From NCBI GenBank assembly GCA_000002435.2, contig CM018793.1: a stretch of 64,000 nucleotides of DNA. One strand, given 5' to 3'. Positions 1 to 64,000 of this stretch are shown here, in pieces. This stretch comes from Giardia intestinalis. Lineage: Eukaryota. Positions within the stretch are counted from its first letter, which is position 1. The number at the start of each line of letters is the position of its first letter. A program made the translations under genes and the position numbers. Below the pieces are notes generated by a model that saw only the letters and a list, made by a program, of their open reading frames with translations, had not been told where the DNA came from and did not search any database.

Positions 1-3000
1 NNNNNNNNNNNNNNNNNNNNNNNNNNNNNNNNNNNNNNNNNNNNNNNNNNNNNNNNNNNNNNNNNNNNNNNNNNNNNNNNNNNNNNNNNNNNNNNNNNNN
101 NNNNNNNNNNNNNNNNNNNNNNNNNNNNNNNNNNNNNNNNNNNNNNNNNNNNNNNNNNNNNNNNNNNNNNNNNNNNNNNNNNNNNNNNNNNNNNNNNNNN
201 NNNNNNNNNNNNNNNNNNNNNNNNNNNNNNNNNNNNNNNNNNNNNNNNNNNNNNNNNNNNNNNNNNNNNNNNNNNNNNNNNNNNNNNNNNNNNNNNNNNN
301 NNNNNNNNNNNNNNNNNNNNNNNNNNNNNNNNNNNNNNNNNNNNNNNNNNNNNNNNNNNNNNNNNNNNNNNNNNNNNNNNNNNNNNNNNNNNNNNNNNNN
401 NNNNNNNNNNNNNNNNNNNNNNNNNNNNNNNNNNNNNNNNNNNNNNNNNNNNNNNNNNNNNNNNNNNNNNNNNNNNNNNNNNNNNNNNNNNNNNNNNNNN
501 NNNNNNNNNNNNNNNNNNNNNNNNNNNNNNNNNNNNNNNNNNNNNNNNNNNNNNNNNNNNNNNNNNNNNNNNNNNNNNNNNNNNNNNNNNNNNNNNNNNN
601 NNNNNNNNNNNNNNNNNNNNNNNNNNNNNNNNNNNNNNNNNNNNNNNNNNNNNNNNNNNNNNNNNNNNNNNNNNNNNNNNNNNNNNNNNNNNNNNNNNNN
701 NNNNNNNNNNNNNNNNNNNNNNNNNNNNNNNNNNNNNNNNNNNNNNNNNNNNNNNNNNNNNNNNNNNNNNNNNNNNNNNNNNNNNNNNNNNNNNNNNNNN
801 NNNNNNNNNNNNNNNNNNNNNNNNNNNNNNNNNNNNNNNNNNNNNNNNNNNNNNNNNNNNNNNNNNNNNNNNNNNNNNNNNNNNNNNNNNNNNNNNNNNN
901 NNNNNNNNNNNNNNNNNNNNNNNNNNNNNNNNNNNNNNNNNNNNNNNNNNNNNNNNNNNNNNNNNNNNNNNNNNNNNNNNNNNNNNNNNNNNNNNNNNNN
1001 NNNNNNNNNNNNNNNNNNNNNNNNNNNNNNNNNNNNNNNNNNNNNNNNNNNNNNNNNNNNNNNNNNNNNNNNNNNNNNNNNNNNNNNNNNNNNNNNNNNN
1101 NNNNNNNNNNNNNNNNNNNNNNNNNNNNNNNNNNNNNNNNNNNNNNNNNNNNNNNNNNNNNNNNNNNNNNNNNNNNNNNNNNNNNNNNNNNNNNNNNNNN
1201 NNNNNNNNNNNNNNNNNNNNNNNNNNNNNNNNNNNNNNNNNNNNNNNNNNNNNNNNNNNNNNNNNNNNNNNNNNNNNNNNNNNNNNNNNNNNNNNNNNNN
1301 NNNNNNNNNNNNNNNNNNNNNNNNNNNNNNNNNNNNNNNNNNNNNNNNNNNNNNNNNNNNNNNNNNNNNNNNNNNNNNNNNNNNNNNNNNNNNNNNNNNN
1401 NNNNNNNNNNNNNNNNNNNNNNNNNNNNNNNNNNNNNNNNNNNNNNNNNNNNNNNNNNNNNNNNNNNNNNNNNNNNNNNNNNNNNNNNNNNNNNNNNNNN
1501 NNNNNNNNNNNNNNNNNNNNNNNNNNNNNNNNNNNNNNNNNNNNNNNNNNNNNNNNNNNNNNNNNNNNNNNNNNNNNNNNNNNNNNNNNNNNNNNNNNNN
1601 NNNNNNNNNNNNNNNNNNNNNNNNNNNNNNNNNNNNNNNNNNNNNNNNNNNNNNNNNNNNNNNNNNNNNNNNNNNNNNNNNNNNNNNNNNNNNNNNNNNN
1701 NNNNNNNNNNNNNNNNNNNNNNNNNNNNNNNNNNNNNNNNNNNNNNNNNNNNNNNNNNNNNNNNNNNNNNNNNNNNNNNNNNNNNNNNNNNNNNNNNNNN
1801 NNNNNNNNNNNNNNNNNNNNNNNNNNNNNNNNNNNNNNNNNNNNNNNNNNNNNNNNNNNNNNNNNNNNNNNNNNNNNNNNNNNNNNNNNNNNNNNNNNNN
1901 NNNNNNNNNNNNNNNNNNNNNNNNNNNNNNNNNNNNNNNNNNNNNNNNNNNNNNNNNNNNNNNNNNNNNNNNNNNNNNNNNNNNNNNNNNNNNNNNNNNN
2001 NNNNNNNNNNNNNNNNNNNNNNNNNNNNNNNNNNNNNNNNNNNNNNNNNNNNNNNNNNNNNNNNNNNNNNNNNNNNNNNNNNNNNNNNNNNNNNNNNNNN
2101 NNNNNNNNNNNNNNNNNNNNNNNNNNNNNNNNNNNNNNNNNNNNNNNNNNNNNNNNNNNNNNNNNNNNNNNNNNNNNNNNNNNNNNNNNNNNNNNNNNNN
2201 NNNNNNNNNNNNNNNNNNNNNNNNNNNNNNNNNNNNNNNNNNNNNNNNNNNNNNNNNNNNNNNNNNNNNNNNNNNNNNNNNNNNNNNNNNNNNNNNNNNN
2301 NNNNNNNNNNNNNNNNNNNNNNNNNNNNNNNNNNNNNNNNNNNNNNNNNNNNNNNNNNNNNNNNNNNNNNNNNNNNNNNNNNNNNNNNNNNNNNNNNNNN
2401 NNNNNNNNNNNNNNNNNNNNNNNNNNNNNNNNNNNNNNNNNNNNNNNNNNNNNNNNNNNNNNNNNNNNNNNNNNNNNNNNNNNNNNNNNNNNNNNNNNNN
2501 NNNNNNNNNNNNNNNNNNNNNNNNNNNNNNNNNNNNNNNNNNNNNNNNNNNNNNNNNNNNNNNNNNNNNNNNNNNNNNNNNNNNNNNNNNNNNNNNNNNN
2601 NNNNNNNNNNNNNNNNNNNNNNNNNNNNNNNNNNNNNNNNNNNNNNNNNNNNNNNNNNNNNNNNNNNNNNNNNNNNNNNNNNNNNNNNNNNNNNNNNNNN
2701 NNNNNNNNNNNNNNNNNNNNNNNNNNNNNNNNNNNNNNNNNNNNNNNNNNNNNNNNNNNNNNNNNNNNNNNNNNNNNNNNNNNNNNNNNNNNNNNNNNNN
2801 NNNNNNNNNNNNNNNNNNNNNNNNNNNNNNNNNNNNNNNNNNNNNNNNNNNNNNNNNNNNNNNNNNNNNNNNNNNNNNNNNNNNNNNNNNNNNNNNNNNN
2901 NNNNNNNNNNNNNNNNNNNNNNNNNNNNNNNNNNNNNNNNNNNNNNNNNNNNNNNNNNNNNNNNNNNNNNNNNNNNNNNNNNNNNNNNNNNNNNNNNNNN

Positions 3001-6000
3001 NNNNNNNNNNNNNNNNNNNNNNNNNNNNNNNNNNNNNNNNNNNNNNNNNNNNNNNNNNNNNNNNNNNNNNNNNNNNNNNNNNNNNNNNNNNNNNNNNNNN
3101 NNNNNNNNNNNNNNNNNNNNNNNNNNNNNNNNNNNNNNNNNNNNNNNNNNNNNNNNNNNNNNNNNNNNNNNNNNNNNNNNNNNNNNNNNNNNNNNNNNNN
3201 NNNNNNNNNNNNNNNNNNNNNNNNNNNNNNNNNNNNNNNNNNNNNNNNNNNNNNNNNNNNNNNNNNNNNNNNNNNNNNNNNNNNNNNNNNNNNNNNNNNN
3301 NNNNNNNNNNNNNNNNNNNNNNNNNNNNNNNNNNNNNNNNNNNNNNNNNNNNNNNNNNNNNNNNNNNNNNNNNNNNNNNNNNNNNNNNNNNNNNNNNNNN
3401 NNNNNNNNNNNNNNNNNNNNNNNNNNNNNNNNNNNNNNNNNNNNNNNNNNNNNNNNNNNNNNNNNNNNNNNNNNNNNNNNNNNNNNNNNNNNNNNNNNNN
3501 NNNNNNNNNNNNNNNNNNNNNNNNNNNNNNNNNNNNNNNNNNNNNNNNNNNNNNNNNNNNNNNNNNNNNNNNNNNNNNNNNNNNNNNNNNNNNNNNNNNN
3601 NNNNNNNNNNNNNNNNNNNNNNNNNNNNNNNNNNNNNNNNNNNNNNNNNNNNNNNNNNNNNNNNNNNNNNNNNNNNNNNNNNNNNNNNNNNNNNNNNNNN
3701 NNNNNNNNNNNNNNNNNNNNNNNNNNNNNNNNNNNNNNNNNNNNNNNNNNNNNNNNNNNNNNNNNNNNNNNNNNNNNNNNNNNNNNNNNNNNNNNNNNNN
3801 NNNNNNNNNNNNNNNNNNNNNNNNNNNNNNNNNNNNNNNNNNNNNNNNNNNNNNNNNNNNNNNNNNNNNNNNNNNNNNNNNNNNNNNNNNNNNNNNNNNN
3901 NNNNNNNNNNNNNNNNNNNNNNNNNNNNNNNNNNNNNNNNNNNNNNNNNNNNNNNNNNNNNNNNNNNNNNNNNNNNNNNNNNNNNNNNNNNNNNNNNNNN
4001 NNNNNNNNNNNNNNNNNNNNNNNNNNNNNNNNNNNNNNNNNNNNNNNNNNNNNNNNNNNNNNNNNNNNNNNNNNNNNNNNNNNNNNNNNNNNNNNNNNNN
4101 NNNNNNNNNNNNNNNNNNNNNNNNNNNNNNNNNNNNNNNNNNNNNNNNNNNNNNNNNNNNNNNNNNNNNNNNNNNNNNNNNNNNNNNNNNNNNNNNNNNN
4201 NNNNNNNNNNNNNNNNNNNNNNNNNNNNNNNNNNNNNNNNNNNNNNNNNNNNNNNNNNNNNNNNNNNNNNNNNNNNNNNNNNNNNNNNNNNNNNNNNNNN
4301 NNNNNNNNNNNNNNNNNNNNNNNNNNNNNNNNNNNNNNNNNNNNNNNNNNNNNNNNNNNNNNNNNNNNNNNNNNNNNNNNNNNNNNNNNNNNNNNNNNNN
4401 NNNNNNNNNNNNNNNNNNNNNNNNNNNNNNNNNNNNNNNNNNNNNNNNNNNNNNNNNNNNNNNNNNNNNNNNNNNNNNNNNNNNNNNNNNNNNNNNNNNN
4501 NNNNNNNNNNNNNNNNNNNNNNNNNNNNNNNNNNNNNNNNNNNNNNNNNNNNNNNNNNNNNNNNNNNNNNNNNNNNNNNNNNNNNNNNNNNNNNNNNNNN
4601 NNNNNNNNNNNNNNNNNNNNNNNNNNNNNNNNNNNNNNNNNNNNNNNNNNNNNNNNNNNNNNNNNNNNNNNNNNNNNNNNNNNNNNNNNNNNNNNNNNNN
4701 NNNNNNNNNNNNNNNNNNNNNNNNNNNNNNNNNNNNNNNNNNNNNNNNNNNNNNNNNNNNNNNNNNNNNNNNNNNNNNNNNNNNNNNNNNNNNNNNNNNN
4801 NNNNNNNNNNNNNNNNNNNNNNNNNNNNNNNNNNNNNNNNNNNNNNNNNNNNNNNNNNNNNNNNNNNNNNNNNNNNNNNNNNNNNNNNNNNNNNNNNNNN
4901 NNNNNNNNNNNNNNNNNNNNNNNNNNNNNNNNNNNNNNNNNNNNNNNNNNNNNNNNNNNNNNNNNNNNNNNNNNNNNNNNNNNNNNNNNNNNNNNNNNNN
5001 NNNNNNNNNNNNNNNNNNNNNNNNNNNNNNNNNNNNNNNNNNNNNNNNNNNNNNNNNNNNNNNNNNNNNNNNNNNNNNNNNNNNNNNNNNNNNNNNNNNN
5101 NNNNNNNNNNNNNNNNNNNNNNNNNNNNNNNNNNNNNNNNNNNNNNNNNNNNNNNNNNNNNNNNNNNNNNNNNNNNNNNNNNNNNNNNNNNNNNNNNNNN
5201 NNNNNNNNNNNNNNNNNNNNNNNNNNNNNNNNNNNNNNNNNNNNNNNNNNNNNNNNNNNNNNNNNNNNNNNNNNNNNNNNNNNNNNNNNNNNNNNNNNNN
5301 NNNNNNNNNNNNNNNNNNNNNNNNNNNNNNNNNNNNNNNNNNNNNNNNNNNNNNNNNNNNNNNNNNNNNNNNNNNNNNNNNNNNNNNNNNNNNNNNNNNN
5401 NNNNNNNNNNNNNNNNNNNNNNNNNNNNNNNNNNNNNNNNNNNNNNNNNNNNNNNNNNNNNNNNNNNNNNNNNNNNNNNNNNNNNNNNNNNNNNNNNNNN
5501 NNNNNNNNNNNNNNNNNNNNNNNNNNNNNNNNNNNNNNNNNNNNNNNNNNNNNNNNNNNNNNNNNNNNNNNNNNNNNNNNNNNNNNNNNNNNNNNNNNNN
5601 NNNNNNNNNNNNNNNNNNNNNNNNNNNNNNNNNNNNNNNNNNNNNNNNNNNNNNNNNNNNNNNNNNNNNNNNNNNNNNNNNNNNNNNNNNNNNNNNNNNN
5701 NNNNNNNNNNNNNNNNNNNNNNNNNNNNNNNNNNNNNNNNNNNNNNNNNNNNNNNNNNNNNNNNNNNNNNNNNNNNNNNNNNNNNNNNNNNNNNNNNNNN
5801 NNNNNNNNNNNNNNNNNNNNNNNNNNNNNNNNNNNNNNNNNNNNNNNNNNNNNNNNNNNNNNNNNNNNNNNNNNNNNNNNNNNNNNNNNNNNNNNNNNNN
5901 NNNNNNNNNNNNNNNNNNNNNNNNNNNNNNNNNNNNNNNNNNNNNNNNNNNNNNNNNNNNNNNNNNNNNNNNNNNNNNNNNNNNNNNNNNNNNNNNNNNN

Positions 6001-55438: not shown

Positions 55439-57772
55439 CTACTCTGAGAGGATGGCTAGTATCTCGCTATTGCCCTCGGCTATGTCCAAGAGCTTCCTCC
55501 TGTTTATGTTCTTCTCCTTCTCTGCGAGGAGTCTCACACACTCTATCTGGCTGCAGGATACTGCCCACATGAGGGCGGTCCATCCGTCACTATCCTGCAT
55601 CCCACCCTCCTTCTCCAAGAGCAGCGCGACGTGGGCAGAGTGACCTTCCTTTGCTGCAGCCATAAGAGCTGTCTGTCCATTGTTACTTCTCATACTTCCT
55701 TCCTTTTCTAGTAGGAGCTTAAAACAGTCTGTGCTACCATACCTTGCTGCAAGCATAAGGGCTGTTTCGCCATCCTCATTCCGCATCCCGCCCTCCTTCT
55801 CTAGCAATATTCTAGTGCAGCCTGCGTGGCCACTCTCTGCTGCCCTTATGAGGGCTGTCCATCCAAAAATATCCTGCATGCCTGCCTCTTCCTCTAGGAG
55901 CAGCTCCACTATCTCTGCGTGGCCACGTGCTGCTGCCAGCGTGAGGGCTGTCTCGCTACTATCACTCTTCATCCCGCCCTCCTTCTCTAGTAGGAGCCTG
56001 ACGCACTCTGGGTGGCCACTCTCTGCCGCCCCCATGAGGGCGGTCCGTCCAAACCCATCCTGTACCCCGCCCTCCCTCTTTAGCAATAGTCTAACACAGT
56101 CTCCGTGACCTCCCTCTGCTGCAAACACAAGGGCGGTCCGTCCATAGCTGTCTTGTACCCCGCCCTCCTTCTCCAAGAGTATGTCCACTATCTCTCCATG
56201 GCCCTCCTCTGCTGCCCGCATGAGGGCGGTATCGCCAGCAGCAAGTAAATACGTCATCACCCTCCGTTCCTCCAGCATACTCCGTTCCACGAGCCCTTTC
56301 GTGATCGCCATGTCCACTTTCATGCCCCCCTCTTTCTCCAGTAATAGCTTGACGCACTCTGGGTGGCCCCTCTCTGCCGCCCGCATGAGGGCGGTCCATC
56401 CGTCACGATCCTTCATCCCCGCCTCCTGAAGGCTACTCCTCACTGCATCAGCATCTCCAATGTAAGCAGCATACATAAGGCTCGTCCAGCCCGAGGCAGC
56501 ACGCTCACGGTCGTTTCCCACCAGTAGCTTAACACAGTCTTGCTTGTCATTCTGCTCTGCTGTCACGAGGGCTGTCACCCCATCACTAGTCTGCATCCCG
56601 CCCTCCCTCTCCAGGAGCAGCGCGACACATTCTCTGTGGCCTTCTTTTGCTGCAAGCACGAGGGCAGTCTGGCCGTCACTATCCTTCATGCCCGCCTCCT
56701 TCTCCACGAGCAGCTCCACTATCTCTGCGTGGCCTTCCTCTGCCGTCCTTATGAGAGCGGTCTCGCCATACCTATCCCGCATCCCGCCCTCCTTCTTTAC
56801 TAGTAGTCTAACACAATCTGAATGGTTTCTCTCTGCTGCCAGCATGAGGGCGGTTTCGCCATCCTCATTCTGCACGCCTCCCTCCTTCTCCAGGAGCAGC
56901 TCCACTATCTCTGCGTGGCCACGGACTGCTGCCCTCATAAGGGCTGTTCCCTCGCTGATGGCCCAGCAGCCCATCGCGACATCCCCCGTCGCCTTCTGTC
57001 CCCCCTGGAGAGGAAGGAGGGCCTTCACAGTATCTACATCATTTCTGTCAACAGCTCGCATGAGGGCAGTGACGCCATTCTCATCTGTGGGATCGAGGAG
57101 CTCCACGACGTCCTTGTGCCTCGCTCTGGCAGCAATCATCAGTGCGGTATTGCCGTCATTGTTCCTCTTGTCCTTGTCTGAGAGGTGTTCCTTGACTGTT
57201 GTGACGTCCCCCGTGAAGGACGCGCACATGAGAGGGGTCCACGAGGGGGCCTCATGCTCGCGAAGAAGCAGAGCTATGTCTGTGTGCTTGTTCCTGAGGG
57301 CGTGCACGAAGGCCGTGTTACCGTCCTTGTCCTTCAGCCCCTTCTCATGGTCAAGAAGGAGCTTTACTACTTCAAGGCTCCCCTGCTGTGCGGCGATCAT
57401 CAGGGCGGTGCGACCGTTATTGTCTTCTTTTCTATGCTCATGAGGGACGAGGATCCTAGCTGCCTCGGGATGGTTCCTATGTGCGGCGTGCATGAGCGCG
57501 GTCCAGCCGTTCTTGTCCCTGAGACCCTTCTCCTTCTCAACAAGCAGCTCAACGGGGCCAGTGTGCCCCTGCTGGGCTGCATGCATGAGGGCTGTCATTC
57601 CCTGCTTATCACGCTGGCCGGTGACTCCCTCTTCAAGTAGCACCCGGACGGTCTCTGTGTCATTCGTGTGTGCAGCACGGACCAGCTTGGGTAGCAGGTG
57701 AGCCTCAGGTTGAAGGGTAATCGTAGCTGCTGCGCCACTGAGTTGCATAACCTGACCTTCTCGTGCCTGCAT
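55439..57772 (-). CDS. Ankyrin-repeat protein, 777 aa with ~22 ANK repeats (Giardia 'protein 21.1'-like family)
   Basis: A single 2.3-kb ORF with no internal stop. It carries ~22 tandem 33-aa modules of the form (D/N)G.TALM.AA..GH.E.V.LLLEKEGGM. An in-frame TGA lies 10 codons upstream of the ATG, so the ORF cannot extend 5'. An A/T-rich patch (caaaaaatacttatccaca) sits directly before the ATG. A poly(A) signal lies 4 nt after the stop. Confidence 0.85.
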   Translation of the reverse strand: MQAREGQVMQLSGAAATITLQPEAHLLPKLVRAAHTNDTETVRVLLEEGVTGQRDKQGMTALMHAAQQGHTGPVELLVEKEKGLRDKNGWTALMHAAHRNHPEAARILVPHEHRKEDNNGRTALMIAAQQGSLEVVKLLLDHEKGLKDKDGNTAFVHALRNKHTDIALLLREHEAPSWTPLMCASFTGDVTTVKEHLSDKDKRNNDGNTALMIAARARHKDVVELLDPTDENGVTALMRAVDRNDVDTVKALLPLQGGQKATGDVAMGCWAISEGTALMRAAVRGHAEIVELLLEKEGGVQNEDGETALMLAAERNHSDCVRLLVKKEGGMRDRYGETALIRTAEEGHAEIVELLVEKEAGMKDSDGQTALVLAAKEGHRECVALLLEREGGMQTSDGVTALVTAEQNDKQDCVKLLVGNDRERAASGWTSLMYAAYIGDADAVRSSLQEAGMKDRDGWTALMRAAERGHPECVKLLLEKEGGMKVDMAITKGLVERSMLEERRVMTYLLAAGDTALMRAAEEGHGEIVDILLEKEGGVQDSYGRTALVFAAEGGHGDCVRLLLKREGGVQDGFGRTALMGAAESGHPECVRLLLEKEGGMKSDSSETALTLAAARGHAEIVELLLEEEAGMQDIFGWTALIRAAESGHAGCTRILLEKEGGMRNEDGETALMLAARYGSTDCFKLLLEKEGSMRSNNGQTALMAAAKEGHSAHVALLLEKEGGMQDSDGWTALMWAVSCSQIECVRLLAEKEKNINRRKLLDIAEGNSEILAILSE
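55500..57100. repeat. Intragenic tandem DNA repeats (~99-bp ankyrin-repeat modules, several nearly identical at the DNA level)
   Basis: The motif cat(c/g)ccgccctcc(t/c)tctc(c/t)a(g/a)gag(c/t)agc recurs at ~55597, 55787, 55970, 56080, 56157, 56590, 56691, 56788 and 56875. The longer block gcagctccactatctctgcgtggcc recurs at ~55900, ~56711 and ~56892. Confidence 0.6.
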
Positions 57773-58887
57773 TGTGGATAAGTATTTTTTGTCCGGCCTT
57801 CAAGAGCGTCAATCCCAGGGGTCTTGAGTCGAGGCTCCTGTCCTAGGGAGCTGGTCTTGCTTGGCCTGTTCTCGAGGGCTGCCTCAAGAGCAGTGACCTT
57901 ATCCGACTCGACCTTGAGCTCGTCCTTCAGAAGCACGATATTAGCATTAGCGCCATTCAGCGCAGCCTCCAAAACGCTGCACTTGTCCTCTAGTGCCACA
58001 CACCGATGTCCCAGCTCACTAACTGGGATGTCGAATGTGGCGAGCGTCTCGTGCAGCTCCCTGGCTGTCGGCCTCCTCTCTGGCTCCAGCACGAATATCC
58101 GCTCCAGAACACTCTTTATGAAGCCGTCGGTGACACCGCTCAGGTCCGGCCTCCACCCGTCGACGAAGACGTCTTTTGGGTCTTTACCTTCTAGGAAGTC
58201 CGGTCTCCTCAGAGTTACTAATTCATAAATGATGACCCCGAGGCTCCATACGTCGGAGGCGGGGCTGGCCTCGTTGTGGAGGAGCACCTCGGGGGCCACG
58301 TATACTGCCGTGCTTACAATGGTGCTCCCGCATCTCAGGGCGTCCTTGCAGAGGCCGAGGCCAGCGATGACGAAGTACTCACCATCTGCGCTGATGAGGA
58401 CGTTGGCAGGCCTGAGGTCGCGGTGGACAAATCCATTAACACTTACCCCATTGACGCCGTGGAGGTAGGCGAGGGCGGCAGCGATCTGCCTCAGGACGGA
58501 GAGGACCACGCCGGCAGACATGGGGATCTTCCTTCGCTTGTGCTCAGTGAGGAGGCGCTCGAGGGTCTTGTCGTGGCGATTCATGACGACGTAGATGAGG
58601 CCCTCGCCTTCGACTACTTGATGGTGCTTGAGAACCCCCGGGTTGGAGAGGTCAAGAAGAGCGGCCAGCTCGAGCCTGATGGCGCCTAAATCCCTCTTAT
58701 CCGGGCCATCGAGGAGGATCTCCTTCACAGCGAGGCTCGGATGGCCCCTAAGGGAGTAGACTGTCCCCATGGTGCTTTCATTAAGCACACTGCCCAACCG
58801 CCTGTGGAGCTTCTTACGAGTGAATTGTGGGATGGCGGGGGCTGCTGCAGGGGGGCTGGCTGCCGTCGGCCATGAAGTTTGTTTCAA
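57595..58887 (-). CDS. NEK-like Ser/Thr protein kinase with C-terminal coiled coil. It is a probable pseudokinase, and its start and stop are both questionable. It may be a pseudogene or the 5' part of a fused NEK-ankyrin gene.
   Basis: Kinase subdomains present: LAVKEI (beta3 Lys), RLELAALLDL (alphaC Glu), HRDLRPANVL (catalytic loop), YVAPEVL (APE), DVWSLGVIIYEL. The DFG motif is replaced by AGLGL and the glycine loop is degenerate (RLGSVLNESTMGTVY). The C-terminal ~100 aa form a heptad-like coiled coil (ALEDKCSVLEAALNGANANIVLLKDELKVESDKVTALEAALEN). The track's 'M' at 58887 is actually TTG. The first ATG (58768-58770) lies after the glycine-loop region. The ORF runs 178 nt into the ankyrin ORF, and no AGTRAAY follows its stop. 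Confidence 0.7.
   Translation of the reverse strand: MKQTSWPTAASPPAAAPAIPQFTRKKLHRRLGSVLNESTMGTVYSLRGHPSLAVKEILLDGPDKRDLGAIRLELAALLDLSNPGVLKHHQVVEGEGLIYVVMNRHDKTLERLLTEHKRRKIPMSAGVVLSVLRQIAAALAYLHGVNGVSVNGFVHRDLRPANVLISADGEYFVIAGLGLCKDALRCGSTIVSTAVYVAPEVLLHNEASPASDVWSLGVIIYELVTLRRPDFLEGKDPKDVFVDGWRPDLSGVTDGFIKSVLERIFVLEPERRPTARELHETLATFDIPVSELGHRCVALEDKCSVLEAALNGANANIVLLKDELKVESDKVTALEAALENRPSKTSSLGQEPRLKTPGIDALEGRTKNTYPQCRHEKVRLCNSVAQQLRLPFNLRLTCYPSWSVLHTRMTQRPSGCYLKRESPASVISRE
57773..57800 (-). promoter_or_regulatory. A/T-rich initiator-like element immediately 5' of the ankyrin ATG (plus-strand T6 at 57784-57789)
   Basis: The minus strand reads ggacAAAAAATACTTATCCACA-ATG. Giardia promoters are short A/T-rich elements within ~20-60 bp of the start codon, with 5'UTRs of only a few nt. 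The same A6 tract is the candidate frameshift site discussed in the findings. Confidence 0.4.
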
Positions 58888-59548
58888 AAATCGTTCACTC
58901 TGCCCACTAGTACTTGCAAGGCTATGTTATAGGGCCCTCTGCGGGTGTAGTCGAGGCGCACACAAGCATGGCTGCCTCTTCAGAGACAGGGGTGTCGCCC
59001 TTCAAGGCCGGGGTTCTTCATCAATGCTCCACACTGGCGTCAGCATGCTGCTGGAATCTCTGGGCTGTTCCTGTCCAGTCGATGCGTGCGTGCCAGAACG
59101 CTTGGTTTCCATCCTTTCCGCCGCGCTAGAGTCACGCTGGCCTTGATCGGCCGCTCTCTCCTCAATTGGTCTCATCTGCTTGGCAAGGACCACAGAGGTT
59201 GGCTGGAAGCGTCGCTTGGAAGGAATCGAGTGGCCGGCTCTCGAGCGTCACCCGACGAGCTTCGTTGGGCATTCGTTTCCGAGCCGGCAACATTGACGGC
59301 CGCAGAGCTCCTGGGCGTTCCTCGATCAGGGATGGGCCGAGCTGCTCGGTTCGTGGCCTCTTGTCCATTCCTCGTTATCGGGCACAGTTAGCCACCAAGC
59401 GGTCTACATATGCTGTTCGAGCCACACCTACAACAAGCCAGCGGCACAGCGCTAGAGCAGCCGTTAAGTCGAGCGAATCACCCCAAGCAGATGCTCAGAT
59501 CTGTCCCGCGCTCAGAGGTCAGTGTCCCTCCACCTCTTGCCCATTATT

Positions 59549-62500
59549 TCATTGGGGTCCTGCACTCCGTCCAAGGGGCTGCTGCGCCGCGCGAAGCTTC
59601 ATGGCCCGAACCGTCCACGAGTCCCCCTTCCGCTCAAGCAGGCGACCCGTGAGGCCTGTGGCTTTGAGGAGGGTTCCAGGATCGCCCTGGGACGTAGGCG
59701 CAATGACTGGCCGCCGCGATGCCAGAAGCTGGCGGGTCACACCGAGCAGGTCCGCCTCTTCCACACTGTTACCCAGCGTCCCTGTCTGCTGCATGCTTTG
59801 AAGAATGACTGTGTCTACGCGATCCCCTGCAGAGCTCTCCGGCGCATATGTCCACGGGTATGCGCACGCAGGCGGGGCCTCAAGACGCATAGGTGGAGGG
59901 GGGTCCTGGAAGACTTGACTGGGCACTTCTTCGAGGTCTTCGATGGACAGCCTGGCTGTGTCTGCCAGTCCACTCTCTGAGGACTTTTGCCCGGAGCGTG
60001 CGGTAAGAGGCACGCCGAAAAGAGAGTCCCATCCCTTCGGAGGCGGGTCAAGATTGACTCTCTGAACAATGCCGAGGAGCTGGGCCCCGTCCAAGCCCCA
60101 CAGAGCTACTCGTTTGTCCCCGCCTATCGAAATGTATGCCTGGCTGTTGGAAGCAGCCGGAGAAAGCAGGCTAATGGGGGCGGCGTGAGCACGGTGGACG
60201 TACCGTACCCGGAGATACGAAGACGGAACGATTGGCGACGTCTTCCCAGAGCTCGGGGTATGAAGAAGACCCTTAGGGAGCTGCTGCGTGTCGAGACTGC
60301 GTGTGATCCCCAGAGCAGCTATCAGATTCTGAATCTTGTAGAGGGTCACAAAGCCTGCGTCGTCCCCGACCAGGATAGAGTGGGCGCCGTCCACAAAGCA
60401 GACAGCTGTCGGCATGGTGCGAGCAGAGAGAGCAAGAACGGACTCCTTCCGGACTGGCACTCTCACCTTGGTTCTGTCCCTGAAGACGTATTGATAGAGA
60501 ATGCCGTTTTCCTCTGCTTCCACGTCCTCCATCCCGGGCCGCGTCACAGCGGACCCCATCATGGTGCCATAAAGAGACGCATGGGCGTCTGCGTATTGCG
60601 CAGCCGCCGGACTCTCCACGTCAACGCCGGACGTCTTAAAGCGCGACTTAGAAAAGTCCTCGATCACCTTGCTGGACTTGTCGGAGAGCTTCACCGCTCC
60701 CTGAGGCACTTTGCGGCGAGAGGCGGCCTGCCTTGGCTGACTGGTGCCCAGCGGAACAGGAAGGAAGTCAACGTAGACCCTCCGAGGAGCAGCTAAGAAG
60801 CGCGTGAAGTAGAAAGAAACAAGCATTATCACCTGAGCAGCAGCCCGAATCTTCATAAGCGTTCTGCGCCGACGGGCTTGAAGGCCTCGGAAGTTCTGGG
60901 AAATGGGGACGTATCGGCGAAGGAGTGCCATTGTTGCAGAGACAATCTCTTGGTAAGACGGACCCGGCATTCTGGTGTGCGCACGCTCTGACCTTTCTTC
61001 CAAGTCGTCCTGTACACCGACGGTCTCCTGCTGGAGATGGCACAGAGATTGGCCTTCTTCAGTAGCCGCTGTGGATTCTTGGACCGTGATGTACGCATAG
61101 CGGTTGGAAACAGTATGCCTCTCAAACATCGATGGAGGCTGGACTGTTCCGGAAGCGGCCTCTCCCTCCCTATCGGTTGTCATCGAGGCGTCCATGGAGG
61201 GCGTTGCAGTCGACGCCTGGAGGTCTCCGACTCGCGCCCCGTAGGCCGTTTTCGTGGAAAGCAGACGATTGGCACGGAACTCCCCGTCAATCGACCGCAG
61301 AGCCTCGTCCCCGGGCACAGGGCCCTTACGTTCGGGGCAGTACTTTGTGTGGAGGAGATCTGGAGAAAAGTTTTCTATCAGGTAGCGAACCACGTCCTCG
61401 TATCTACTCCCATACAACTGGACGTCTGAATTGAAATCAGAGAGGGGCAGAAGGGCGTGCTTCAAGAATCCAGCTGTCTGGACCCAGCCGGCCTGAAAGT
61501 CTGCATTCAGTGGATAGCCCAGGGGATGGTAGCTTCCGTGGTAAAAGGCGCAGACGAGCGAAAAGTTCGGGTACAGCGGGCGGACCGCGTGGATGTAGCA
61601 GATGCCAGAGGCCGACGCCGAAAACAGAAGGGGCCACTGTCCCAGGAAGCAGAGGGCCGTTATGGGGGAGCCAACAGACGGGATTGTCGGGGGCTGGATC
61701 ACCCCCTGCTGCAGCAGCTTGACAGACATCGTGTCGTGGACGAGAATCCGGCCGTCAGAGGTGCCTATGGCCAGCAGAGACAGCTCCTCCGAGGCGTCAA
61801 TGCACGTCACGTACGAGTCACTTCGAGCCTTCTTTGCATGCCCGGTGTAGAGAACGTCGCAGAGCAGTTTCTGGATCGGAGACGGCGCCTGATTCGGCTG
61901 TCCTGCTGAAGAGACATCTCGGGCCCACAGGAACTCGGGGCAAAAGCGTCTTACAACCTCCGGCTTTGAAGAGAGGTCGTCTGCGCCTACAAACACGGGC
62001 TTCGACGAAAAGAACGCCGTGAGCTGCTGCCGTGCCCTTGCAAAGTGGTCTGCTCCTCCTGCAAAAAAGATGTCGAAGGTCGTCAGCTGCCTCGACAGCC
62101 CTATCTTGTTCACGTACTCGTGGCTCGGCTTCATGTCTATGGCGCGCACAATTTGCGGGTTGAGGTTGTCGCAGAGGAAGAGAAGGCCGCGCGCTCTGTC
62201 GGTGGCCAAGATTTGTGCGCGCATTATCGACTTGTCGGAAAGCAGCTGTCTCACAAAGGCTGCGTTGTTGGCCTTGACGATGATCTGAGACAGATTGAGC
62301 CCCAGGCTGTACGAGGAAGCTCCGGACGACATGTGCGAGTCGGCCCCTGCAGAAGGCTCCCTCTGTGCGTCGCCCAGTCTTTGGCCATCAAACGGGTTGT
62401 CGACGATGTCAATGTCGTCTTCGCATGTCCTCCGGCCGGTAATCCCAACGTTGGATATGTCGAAGAGAGAGCCGGTCTTCCAGTAAAGTGTCACTGCACC

Positions 62501-63997
62501 GTGAGTTCCTATGACGTAAAGAACGCGTCCCTTGCTGTCGACGGCGAGGGACAGAATCCGCCGCCCGAGGGCGTCGAGCAGAGACTGGGGGGCGTCGGGG
62601 GCGCTGGGGATCTGGCTGAGGATCTGCGGTGGCTTGTGGAGCGTCCTATATCGGGCTTCGTCGTCTGGAGTGGAAAAGTGGAGATCGGCCTCCGTCACCT
62701 CGCTCTGGCCCTCTGCGTAGAATTTCGAGAGGTCGCACGTCTCGATGCTTGCATACTCCGAACCCAGTACGGCATCCTGTGCGTCATCGCCACCGCTGCC
62801 TGTGCCGTCTCGGCCCTCCAGAAGCGTCTTGGAGATCCTTGCAATGTCGTAGATCCTGGACGGCCGGCCGGTAAGAAGCGAGAAGATCGTCACTTCCCCA
62901 GGGCCTGTGACGGCGCCAAGCTCGTTCATGCGCTGGTTGACGACAACGCCGGCGCACTCCTTGCTGATAGACCCCAGGGGAAGATGCTCGGGCGCGTGCT
63001 TGATCAGCTCCTTCGGCCTGCGCTTGCCCAGTGCCCGCTGCTCCTCCTCGCGCTTCGCGTCCTCAAAGTCCCAGACCACCTGCTCCTTGGCCAGCTCCTC
63101 GTTGGCAACCACCTTGAGGACGAACAGCCGGCGCCCGAAGGGGATGTAGCCGAAGTCGTGCTTGCGGCTATAGACCCCGGTGCCGACCTTGACTCCGTGC
63201 AGGTTGATGGCGATGTCGATCCGCGTGATGTGCGCACCCGTCAGTGCATGGATGAGGGTCACCACGTTGTCGTGGTCAATAACGCCAACAACGTTCCCGA
63301 AAGCGAACGACGCCAGAATAGGCTTGCCCGGCCTGGGCGGCTGGACAAGGGTGATCAGGTGCGCGGACTTCACGAGGTTGGCCTTCACGAGCCTCTTGTC
63401 AGAAACCTGCACGGCCTCGCGCCTCCTCTTCCCGCGCCTATCGTCCTCGCCGTCCACCCGGGCGGGGTCGTCCTCGAGCTCCTCCTTTGTCACGGCCATC
63501 CCCAAGTGGCAGGAGCGGACCGCCTCCGGGCCAATCTGGTAGACGTTGCTGAAGCCAATGGTTGTGATGTGATCGCTGACGACGTAGCACCGCATGATCC
63601 CCTCCGGGTGCAAGTCCGAGAACGTGCAGACGACCCCCAGGTCCTCGTCCAGAATGACGAGCGCGGCATCGGAGCCCACGACGGCTAGCCGGAACAGGCC
63701 GTCTGCCATGGCCTCCTCCCACTGGCCGCGCCCGGCGTCCATGCACCTGACGCTCCCCGCGACCACATACTTGGTGGTGACAAACTCGGCCCGGATCGTC
63801 AGATGCACGCCCCCGTGGCGCTTCTCGTGCGTTGCCGCGGCGACGGGGTCTGGGGCCACGGTCGCCTTGACAAAGGCCAGGGGGTCGTCGGCGATGAGCT
63901 GCGTCTCCTTGATTCCGTGGCTGAGAAGTGTGCTCTGCCCGGCGTCAAAGATCTGCGATGTGATGAGGCTCACGACCTCAAGGTCTTCGGAGGCCAT
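59549..63997 (-). CDS. Large hypothetical protein (>=1482 aa) with WD40/beta-propeller-like repeats. Its N-terminus may lie beyond the window edge.
   Basis: An uninterrupted 4.4-kb ORF. WD40-like strand motifs: LAIGTSDGRILVHD, AVCFVDGAHSILVGDDAGFVTLYKI, ISIGGDKRVALWGL, LAVDSKGRVLYVIGTHGAVTLYW. The reading frame is still open at 63998-64000 (gcc upstream of the ATG at 63995-63997). A long antisense ORF (62045-63688 +) sits inside it, as is typical of GC-rich Giardia genes. Confidence 0.72.
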   Translation of the reverse strand: MASEDLEVVSLITSQIFDAGQSTLLSHGIKETQLIADDPLAFVKATVAPDPVAAATHEKRHGGVHLTIRAEFVTTKYVVAGSVRCMDAGRGQWEEAMADGLFRLAVVGSDAALVILDEDLGVVCTFSDLHPEGIMRCYVVSDHITTIGFSNVYQIGPEAVRSCHLGMAVTKEELEDDPARVDGEDDRRGKRRREAVQVSDKRLVKANLVKSAHLITLVQPPRPGKPILASFAFGNVVGVIDHDNVVTLIHALTGAHITRIDIAINLHGVKVGTGVYSRKHDFGYIPFGRRLFVLKVVANEELAKEQVVWDFEDAKREEEQRALGKRRPKELIKHAPEHLPLGSISKECAGVVVNQRMNELGAVTGPGEVTIFSLLTGRPSRIYDIARISKTLLEGRDGTGSGGDDAQDAVLGSEYASIETCDLSKFYAEGQSEVTEADLHFSTPDDEARYRTLHKPPQILSQIPSAPDAPQSLLDALGRRILSLAVDSKGRVLYVIGTHGAVTLYWKTGSLFDISNVGITGRRTCEDDIDIVDNPFDGQRLGDAQREPSAGADSHMSSGASSYSLGLNLSQIIVKANNAAFVRQLLSDKSIMRAQILATDRARGLLFLCDNLNPQIVRAIDMKPSHEYVNKIGLSRQLTTFDIFFAGGADHFARARQQLTAFFSSKPVFVGADDLSSKPEVVRRFCPEFLWARDVSSAGQPNQAPSPIQKLLCDVLYTGHAKKARSDSYVTCIDASEELSLLAIGTSDGRILVHDTMSVKLLQQGVIQPPTIPSVGSPITALCFLGQWPLLFSASASGICYIHAVRPLYPNFSLVCAFYHGSYHPLGYPLNADFQAGWVQTAGFLKHALLPLSDFNSDVQLYGSRYEDVVRYLIENFSPDLLHTKYCPERKGPVPGDEALRSIDGEFRANRLLSTKTAYGARVGDLQASTATPSMDASMTTDREGEAASGTVQPPSMFERHTVSNRYAYITVQESTAATEEGQSLCHLQQETVGVQDDLEERSERAHTRMPGPSYQEIVSATMALLRRYVPISQNFRGLQARRRRTLMKIRAAAQVIMLVSFYFTRFLAAPRRVYVDFLPVPLGTSQPRQAASRRKVPQGAVKLSDKSSKVIEDFSKSRFKTSGVDVESPAAAQYADAHASLYGTMMGSAVTRPGMEDVEAEENGILYQYVFRDRTKVRVPVRKESVLALSARTMPTAVCFVDGAHSILVGDDAGFVTLYKIQNLIAALGITRSLDTQQLPKGLLHTPSSGKTSPIVPSSYLRVRYVHRAHAAPISLLSPAASNSQAYISIGGDKRVALWGLDGAQLLGIVQRVNLDPPPKGWDSLFGVPLTARSGQKSSESGLADTARLSIEDLEEVPSQVFQDPPPPMRLEAPPACAYPWTYAPESSAGDRVDTVILQSMQQTGTLGNSVEEADLLGVTRQLLASRRPVIAPTSQGDPGTLLKATGLTGRLLERKGDSWTVRAMKLRAAQQPLGRSAGPQ

Positions 63998-64000
63998 GGC

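Follow-up and report, generated by a model that had tools for sequence, protein, structure and literature searches.

A 64,000-nt stretch of Giardia intestinalis DNA (contig CM018793.1 of assembly GCA_000002435.2), hereafter the window, carries on its minus strand two overlapping open reading frames (ORFs), one encoding a NEK-type protein kinase and the other an array of ankyrin repeats. Our analysis indicated that this locus is probably one ancestral Nek-GL4 NEK gene that was disabled by two real lesions, a 1-nt loss and an 11-nt deletion, and that now persists as a recent pseudogene. The product of the ancestral gene would have combined a dead kinase domain with a coiled coil and a TALM-type ankyrin array, amounting to approximately 1148 aa when restored. 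The 11-nt deletion past the start codon leaves the original AUG with only 19 residues to encode, and the loss of one nucleotide in the linker codon between a lysine (K) and a tyrosine (Y) throws the ankyrin array out of frame; the patch of sequence around the latter junction was probably acquired by gene conversion, unless it descends from a common frame-shifted ancestor. The ancestry of the locus as a single gene, the positions of both lesions and their reality were established by comparison with a syntenic ortholog, with fused paralogs and with previously published sequence. Presumably no functional full-length product is made, and the inactivation appears to have been recent, because approximately 1130 codons are still free of stops.

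The kinase-frame ORF (positions 57595-58887, minus strand) runs through the start of the ankyrin ORF and overlaps it by 178 nt, just as the preliminary description of this DNA had stated. Within this ORF, a CDS of 391 aa is annotated by NCBI (57595-58770, minus), which begins at an internal methionine (MGTVYSL) and whose tail is out of frame; the ORF from this methionine to its stop codon is identical to KAE8304594.1 / XP_037902123.1 (P0022, 'Kinase, NEK', Giardia intestinalis WB). A protein-kinase domain occupies positions 58054-58767 (minus; Pfam PF00069, residues 2-239, E = 1.7e-31, with a bit score of 110 where the cut-off is 31.7). Its lysine (LAVKEI) and HRD (HRDLRPAN) motifs are present, and GLG stands in place of DFG; judged by these motifs, the domain is a catalytically dead pseudokinase of the kind typical of dead Giardia NEKs. 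Next comes a heptad-like region with a linker (57787-58020, minus; SELGHR...ALENRP...GQEPRLKTPGIDALEGRTK), which is colinear with the paralogs and probably forms a coiled coil. The last part of the ORF (57595-57786, minus) is a read-through tail of 63 aa (NTYPQCRHEK...SVISRE, then the stop). This tail and the 178-nt overlap are the ankyrin linker, together with the first ankyrin repeat, read in the wrong frame. The non-coding appearance of the tail had been remarked upon earlier. Among 198 related proteins retrieved, only P0022 contained the NTYPQC motif, and P0022 is how NCBI models the present locus.

The ankyrin frame (55439-57784, minus) consists of the linker codons for YLST followed by an ORF of 777 aa (55439-57772, with the ATG at 57772). 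This ORF contains 19 TAL[MIVT] motifs and reaches the natural C terminus of the family (..NINRRKLLDIAEGNSEILAILSE, then the stop), and the repaired protein gave Pfam matches to Ank_2, Ank and Ank_4, the repeats being out of frame with the kinase. The combination of a Giardia NEK kinase with TALM-type ankyrin repeats, which had been recognized from the sequence at the outset, was thereby confirmed. The ankyrin ORF was not present, either exactly or at more than 57% identity, in the protein collections searched, including the NCBI and UniRef entries for WB. Five nucleotides past its stop codon lies a Giardia poly(A) signal, AGTAAAC (55428-55434, minus), which is the only AGTRAAY motif downstream of the ancestral start codon in the NEK gene. 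A scan of positions 55300-59000 for AGTRAAY returned only the sites at 58899 and 55434; the stretch from the coiled coil to the ankyrin ATG contains none, nor does the vicinity of the kinase stop, in agreement with the preliminary description.

The repaired query was compared with related proteins. The best matches were fused kinase/coiled-coil/ankyrin NEKs that span the whole junction, among them P0001 (985 aa, WB, 72% identity), P0002 (947 aa) and P0003 (860 aa, P15). The last of these (EFO63702.1) is encoded by one intact NEK-ankyrin ORF of 860 aa on the P15 contig ACVC01000123 (L002) and is the positional ortholog of the window locus. Three segments of the contig are colinear with the window: the 3' end of a WD40/VPS11-like gene, with 83-87% nucleotide identity and the same C terminus in both (..MKLRAAQQPLGRS[A/T]GPQ, that is, ..QQPLGRS[A/T]GPQ, then the stop); the intergenic spacer together with the 5' flank of the NEK gene; and the 3'-terminal 186 nt of the ankyrin ORF together with a truncated large-subunit (LSU) rRNA gene (92%). 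Between WB and P15, the dS value was 0.63 for the neighbouring gene (dN/dS 0.087) and 0.55 for the kinase and coiled-coil part of the NEK gene (dN/dS 0.36), and the similarity of the two dS values supports orthology. Because the syntenic gene of P15 is one intact ORF, the ancestor was a single gene, which is retained in assemblage E; the closest paralogs are fused as well, and the earlier proposal that one gene had been split was therefore upheld.

The protein EFO63702.1 of P15 resembles the WB locus in its neighbours, its 5' flank, its start codon and the GLG motif of a dead kinase, whereas it differs in possessing an uninterrupted ORF and in lacking a linker segment of 20/21 nt, and its amino acid identity to the query is 61%. 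The stretch of ankyrin sequence without a colinear match measures approximately 1.0 kb in P15 (L002 2888-3897), compared with approximately 1.85 kb in WB (55439-57480), which, as far as the alignment goes, indicates an expansion or contraction of the ankyrin repeats since the split of the assemblages.

The two frames part at an A6 tract followed by T (57784-57790, minus; A_AAA_AAT in the kinase frame), which is the site of the 1-nt loss and at which paralogs have AAA-GAA, encoding K-E. On the plus strand, the corresponding T6 (coding A6) lies at 57785-57790 and is the only homopolymer of at least six nucleotides near the junction; the tract had previously been placed at 57784-57789, and although these coordinates needed correction, the frame lesion does map to it. 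The codons here are ACA AAA AAT ACT TAT CCA CAA TGC in the kinase frame and TAC TTA TCC ACA ATG in the ankyrin frame. When one base is added to the A6 tract, the reading becomes ...LEGRTK(K)YLSTMQAREGQVMQLSG..., i.e. ...EGRTKKYLSTMQAREGQVMQLSG..., and the repaired reading KKYLSTMQAREGQVMQLSG is colinear, without a gap, with the in-frame linker KEHLATMRALEAKVMQLSD of the WB NEK P0199 (KAE8301902.1). This protein has the closest in-frame linker (IDALENQGKEHLATMRALEAKVMQLSD, compared with IDALEGRTKKYLSTMQAREGQVMQLSG in the repaired window), and other intact fused paralogs show KEYLAMIKALE (P0010) and KEYSAMIKALE (P0001) at this place. To judge from these alignments, the likeness of the junction to the linkers of fused paralogs is greater than expected by chance. 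Homology follows the kinase frame as far as AAA (K) and switches to the ankyrin frame at TAC (Y), so the missing base was lost from the codon in between; the event was most likely a change of AAA-GAA to AAA-AA, which would have created the A6 run. The ankyrin ATG itself is not a dedicated start site, since the fused paralogs translate the corresponding stretch in frame as part of their linker. A segment of 20 nt (AATACTTATCCACAATGCAG) in the window has no counterpart in P15 and P0002, and at the same place KEY/KEH-type paralogs carry 21 nt.

A second lesion, which the preliminary description had overlooked, lies at the other end of the kinase frame. The ancestral NEK start codon was located at 58871-58873 (minus; MADG...) by alignment with P15 (L002) and with an ENA paralog (L001). 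The P15 ortholog shares a conserved 5' flank with this ATG (approximately 58874-58935), and the paralogs have N termini of the forms MADGDD.., MADGSN.. or MTNDDH... Directly after ATGGCCGACGGCAGC, MAFFT alignment revealed that the window lacks 11 nt which P15 and the ENA paralog both possess (58858-58864, minus; the placement is ambiguous within GACGGCAGC), which shifts the frame past codon 4-5. All that the ancestral start now encodes is a remnant ORF of 19 codons (58814-58873, minus; MADGSQPPCSSPRHPTIHS, then the stop), for which the peptide MADGSQPPCSSPR would be diagnostic. The kinase frame (..TSWPTAASPPAAAPAIPQFT..) is homologous to residues 7-21 of the paralogs, and its first in-frame ATG is that of the MGTVYSL methionine, inside the glycine-loop region, where the NCBI model starts. 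It had been expected that a +1 change in the A6 tract would yield one protein of approximately 1150 aa. The two frames do fuse upon this change, but because of the 11-nt deletion at the start, a single added A cannot rebuild the protein of approximately 1148 aa. The ENA paralog (P0002, L001) was also considered as an ortholog or outgroup and was rejected, its 5' flank not being alignable with the window.

The reality of the lesions was assessed at the level of assemblies and published sequence. The Giardia kinome of Manning 2011 (Genome Biol 12:R66) was compiled on the Sanger assembly of 2007 (GiardiaDB 2.3). In Table S1 of that study, row G084/GK135 contains the identical kinase sequence, assigned to Nek-GL4 with the remark 'Dead Nek - missing D184'. 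The row is a stop-to-stop translation, HSLASTSGQSERFLKQTSWPTAASPPAAAPAIPQF...EGRTKNTYPQCRHEKVRLCNSVAQ..., which contains both ..KQTSWPTAASPPAAAPAIPQF.. and ..EGRTKNTYPQCRHEKVRLCNSVAQ.. (Manning 2011). The deletion junction (kinase frame ..TSWPTAASPP..) and the A6 reading are thus both found in the Sanger-era GK135 sequence, and since an independent Sanger assembly gives the same protein-level reading, both lesions are real. In the more recent assembly, the homopolymer indels of the PacBio sequence were corrected with 100x Illumina data (Xu 2020).

The A6 junction was also found, in identical form, in a non-syntenic paralog on contig AHGT01000155.1 (L003) of the DH draft assembly GCA_000498715.1. 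That assembly, we believe, was 454-sequenced. A patch of the window (57655-57811, minus) that includes the A6 tract is 95% identical to the DH paralog, while the flanks of the patch are only 63-80% identical. This mosaic pattern of identity points to gene conversion; the patch is probably a gene-conversion tract, or else it was inherited from a common frame-shifted ancestor. The frame-shifted junction is thus heritable sequence common to a small group of paralogs. The DH copy bears a 2-nt deletion and stop codons near or just upstream of the junction and other lesions too, and its two parts are annotated apart, as a kinase (P0073; ESU34771.1, 352 aa) and as an ankyrin protein (P0103; ESU34772.1, 342 aa) that was named 'Serine/threonine protein kinase'. 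We noted that ESU34771.1 and ESU34772.1 are pieces of one NEK pseudogene with multiple lesions (L003 2095-5272), of which an ORF with ankyrin repeats and a RING domain at L003 4475-5272 may also be part. Ankyrin ORFs beginning with MQAREGQVMQLSGA occur at at least two other loci, namely P0069 (XP_001703980.1, 417 aa, with the natural C terminus), which was annotated as 'Protein 21.1' in the WB genome of 2007, and P0103 (342 aa). A scan of one JGI metagenome collection, which is unlikely to contain Giardia DNA, did not find the junction with A5-A8.

The locus possesses the kinase domain and the downstream same-strand TALM array of a Nek-GL4 gene, and it was assigned to the GL4 class by Manning 2011. 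It does not have the uninterrupted ORF of a functional member, nor the complete catalytic set K72/D166/D184, D184 being missing. Relative to the intact ortholog it carries frame-disrupting lesions, as a pseudogene does, and these lesions are present in the genome itself. Several observations nevertheless weigh against the conclusion that the gene is dead. The 356 codons of the kinase frame and the 777 ankyrin codons are free of stops, and the natural C terminus and the poly(A) signal are intact. The dN/dS value relative to P15, 0.36, is below 1. Ankyrin ORFs with the same MQAREGQVMQLSGA start exist at the P0069 and P0103 loci, so the ankyrin-only form may be tolerated or even used, and an A/T-rich tract precedes the ankyrin ATG at a spacing close to that at the ancestral ATG. 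Finally, a low SAGE signal was recorded for GK135 (Manning 2011 Table S1). A dN/dS value of 0.36 suggests that the gene was under constraint for most of its history. For neutral divergences of 1% and 2%, the 777-codon ORF would still be without a stop with probabilities of 0.46 and 0.21, respectively, and the lack of stops in approximately 1130 codons is compatible with neutrality only up to a divergence of approximately 1-2%.

Alternatively, a gene fission might be in progress, in which the kinase half is vestigial or dead and the 777-aa ankyrin protein is expressed alone, as a Protein 21.1 or ARP-1-type protein. Transcription would then proceed from the A-rich tract (ACAAAAAATACTTAT), strengthened by the deletion itself, the original poly(A) signal would be used, and the N-terminal peptide of the stand-alone protein would be MQAREGQVMQLSGAAATITLQPEAHLLPK. 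In keeping with such a fission, the ankyrin ORF runs undamaged as far as the natural C terminus and is followed by AGTAAAC; an A/T-rich element lies approximately 8-22 nt upstream of the ATG, which is like the spacing at the ancestral start; the same MQAREGQV start is found on ankyrin-only ORFs at two other loci, including that of the Protein 21.1 P0069; and NEKs and Protein 21.1 have been described as one family that gains and loses kinase domains and repeats (Manning 2011). However, a recent lesion requires no selection for the ORF to have stayed open, given the probabilities stated above. In addition, the supposed start codon lies within coding sequence of the fused paralogs, none of the protein collections searched contains the ankyrin ORF, and the DH copy with the same junction is full of other lesions. 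We consider fission to be unlikely. The original proposal of two independent genes, with the A-rich tract as the ankyrin promoter, might apply to the ankyrin half, but the present results lend it no support. Very improbable in our estimation would be a leaky pseudogene in which ribosomal slippage yields a low level of a kinase-ankyrin fusion, as a case of cellular -1 frameshifting in Giardia, or, in a milder form, in which the A run serves as an initiator for a newborn stand-alone Protein 21.1 gene. If the latter were true, the newborn ankyrin gene would represent a conversion from NEK to Protein 21.1 caught in the act.

Frameshifting could also be programmed, or at least productive. Giardia ribosomes are capable of -1 frameshifting on the gag-pol of Giardia lamblia virus, and at A_AAA_AAU (57790-57784) such an event would produce a kinase-ankyrin fusion (...EGRTKN-YLSTMQAREGQ..., with the slip at the hyphen and GRTKNYLSTMQAR as the trans-frame peptide) beside a short kinase-only product. 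The heptamer matches X_XXY_YYZ in the zero-frame phase (ACA AAA AAT), and the slip enters the ankyrin frame (TAC TTA TCC ACA ATG) exactly where the frames part; the WB locus thus shares with canonical -1 programmed frameshift sites an in-phase heptamer and a downstream ORF in the -1 frame. It differs from them in having no supported stimulatory structure, no conserved arrangement and no upstream start codon. The 119 nt downstream fold with a minimum free energy of -33 kcal/mol, compared with a mean of -31.7 for shuffled sequences (z = -0.37; 72 of 200 shuffles were no less stable; pseudoknots were outside this search), and the kinase frame is left without the ancestral start by the 11-nt deletion. 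Moreover, the heptamer is an automatic by-product of the loss of G from A-AAA-GAA-T, the P15 ortholog and most paralogs are fused in frame and have no heptamer site, and in the DH paralog the same heptamer is preceded by the 2-nt deletion and stop codons. A programmed event, which the preliminary description had allowed for, is thus highly improbable. The scenario of an intact gene, with the A6 tract, the 11-nt gap or both as consensus errors of PacBio sequence beside an assembly gap, fares similarly poorly. PacBio homopolymer errors did truncate genes in the draft (Xu 2020), and a mere 5.7-7 kb separates the locus from where the rDNA gap begins. Yet the Sanger assembly of 2007 reads alike across both lesions, Illumina correction of indels was applied (Xu 2020), an 11-nt deletion is not an error of the homopolymer type, and the same A6 appears in the separately assembled DH paralog, all of which makes an artefact hard to credit. 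Of what had originally been proposed for a split gene, a real frameshift in a pseudogene therefore fits best, whereas a homopolymer error is contradicted by the Sanger sequence and by the DH copy. The least probable explanation, to which we attach almost no weight, is a short spliceosomal intron: removal of the 20-nt AATACTTATCCACAATGCAG, which ends in CAG, would give an in-frame product, ..GRTK-AREGQVMQLSG.. (joined at the hyphen), colinear with ..DQVK-TLTDKFAQFSG.. of P15. Nonetheless, a search of the coding strand of 57400-58100 with five patterns found no GTATGT, CTATGT or GTAAGT 5' splice site and no CTRAC motif, and fused paralogs use the corresponding 21 nt as in-frame coding sequence (EYLAMIK/EHLATMR). 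To our knowledge, 20 nt is also shorter than any Giardia intron.

The disabled Nek-GL4 gene is situated at the edge of an assembly gap. Real sequence in the window is confined to positions 51889-64000 (12.1 kb, 63.5% G+C), positions 1-51888 being N. Rfam matches identified a small-subunit (SSU) rRNA gene cut by the N run (51889-53118, minus) and a truncated LSU rRNA gene (54296-55347, minus; the 3' part, model positions 1891-3399). The LSU fragment starts 92 nt past the ankyrin stop, with the SSU further on, and the same junction between NEK and LSU rDNA was found by BLAST at the end of the P15 contig ACVC01000123 (L002 3897-5194, 92% identity), so the boundary between gene and rDNA is older than the split of assemblages A and E. 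KAE8304594.1 is encoded on the 4,018,654-bp chromosome of the PacBio assembly of 2020, and partial 18S genes flank the largest internal gap, in chromosome 5 (Xu et al. 2020); the window seems to represent the margin of this rDNA gap in WB chromosome 5. Three long ORFs lie in or overlap the G+C-rich rDNA, at 52397-54457 (plus, 686 aa), 53635-54483 (plus, 282 aa) and 54572-55090 (minus, 172 aa), the last of which is inside the LSU match and gave no Pfam match; all three are almost certainly spurious.

On the other side of the NEK gene, an upstream gene of at least 1482 aa (59549-63997, minus) runs off the window and shows faint Pfam matches to WD40 and to the PEP5-VPS11 N terminus. Its P15 ortholog is 1795 aa long, and the dN/dS value of 0.087, obtained over the last 277 codons, is evidence of strong purifying selection. 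The spacer between this gene and the NEK start (58874-59548) is 675 nt long, the mean intergenic length in Giardia being 477 bp (Xu 2020), and is 43-71% identical to P15; unlike in the rest of the spacer, high conservation with P15 resumes in the approximately 60 nt directly 5' of the ancestral ATG. The AGTGAAC at 58899 is located in this spacer, with no obvious gene for it to serve.

The architecture inferred for the ancestral gene is the norm for its class: a kinase, a coiled coil and TALM-type ankyrin repeats characterize Nek-GL4, and this arrangement accounts for 67% of Giardia NEKs (Manning 2011). The GL4 subfamily also shows rapid turnover, and 29 of the 30 kinase pseudogenes in WB belong to it (Manning 2011, Genome Biol 12:R66). 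The GK135 entry in that study has no ORF ID and no Met start, its 'Pseudogene?' and ankyrin-repeat fields are empty, and neither the link to the 777-aa ankyrin ORF nor the two lesions are recorded there. A kinome re-annotation paper of 2025 contains no mention of pseudogenes or frameshifts.

The surroundings of the locus recall the telomere gene unit (TGU) of Upcroft et al., in which, according to a review of 2024, a cysteine-rich protein gene, gPK, ANK and rDNA follow one another (PMC10999387). The WB locus has the same order of kinase, ankyrin and truncated rDNA on one strand. It differs in that no VSP or cysteine-rich gene lies upstream, its neighbour being the WD40/VPS11-like gene, and in that it borders the internal rDNA gap of chromosome 5 and not a demonstrated telomere. 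The gPK protein of 1997, AAB51601.1 (P0066), is paralogous to the window kinase, the two being 63% identical. It is 100% identical to residues 1-429 of P0199 (KAE8301902.1), the fused WB NEK of 1114 aa, but shortly ahead of the kinase/ankyrin linker it gives way to a short tail of unrelated sequence. This suggests that the classical gPK and ANK pair may be a frameshift-split NEK, whether the frameshift was real in that isolate or a sequencing error. Other 'Kinase, NEK' models also end soon past the same linker, namely P0057 (XP_001709905.1), P0054, P0047 (P15) and P0052, and those of P0057 and P0047 end in unrelated tails that are apparently out of frame (e.g. ..VLVSATSRGASVPSSCLLGRRG..). Comparisons of this kind suggest that truncated NEK models may be common in Giardia annotations.

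For the annotation of WB, to which they matter most, these results mean that KAE8304594.1 and its 777-aa ankyrin continuation belong together and are best recorded as a single disabled Nek-GL4 gene. The locus is ordinary in kind, since decay is already known for this fast-evolving family, and it leaves the knowledge of NEK turnover in Giardia unchanged; it also serves as a clean and datable example of the interconversion and decay of NEK and Protein 21.1 genes beside rDNA.

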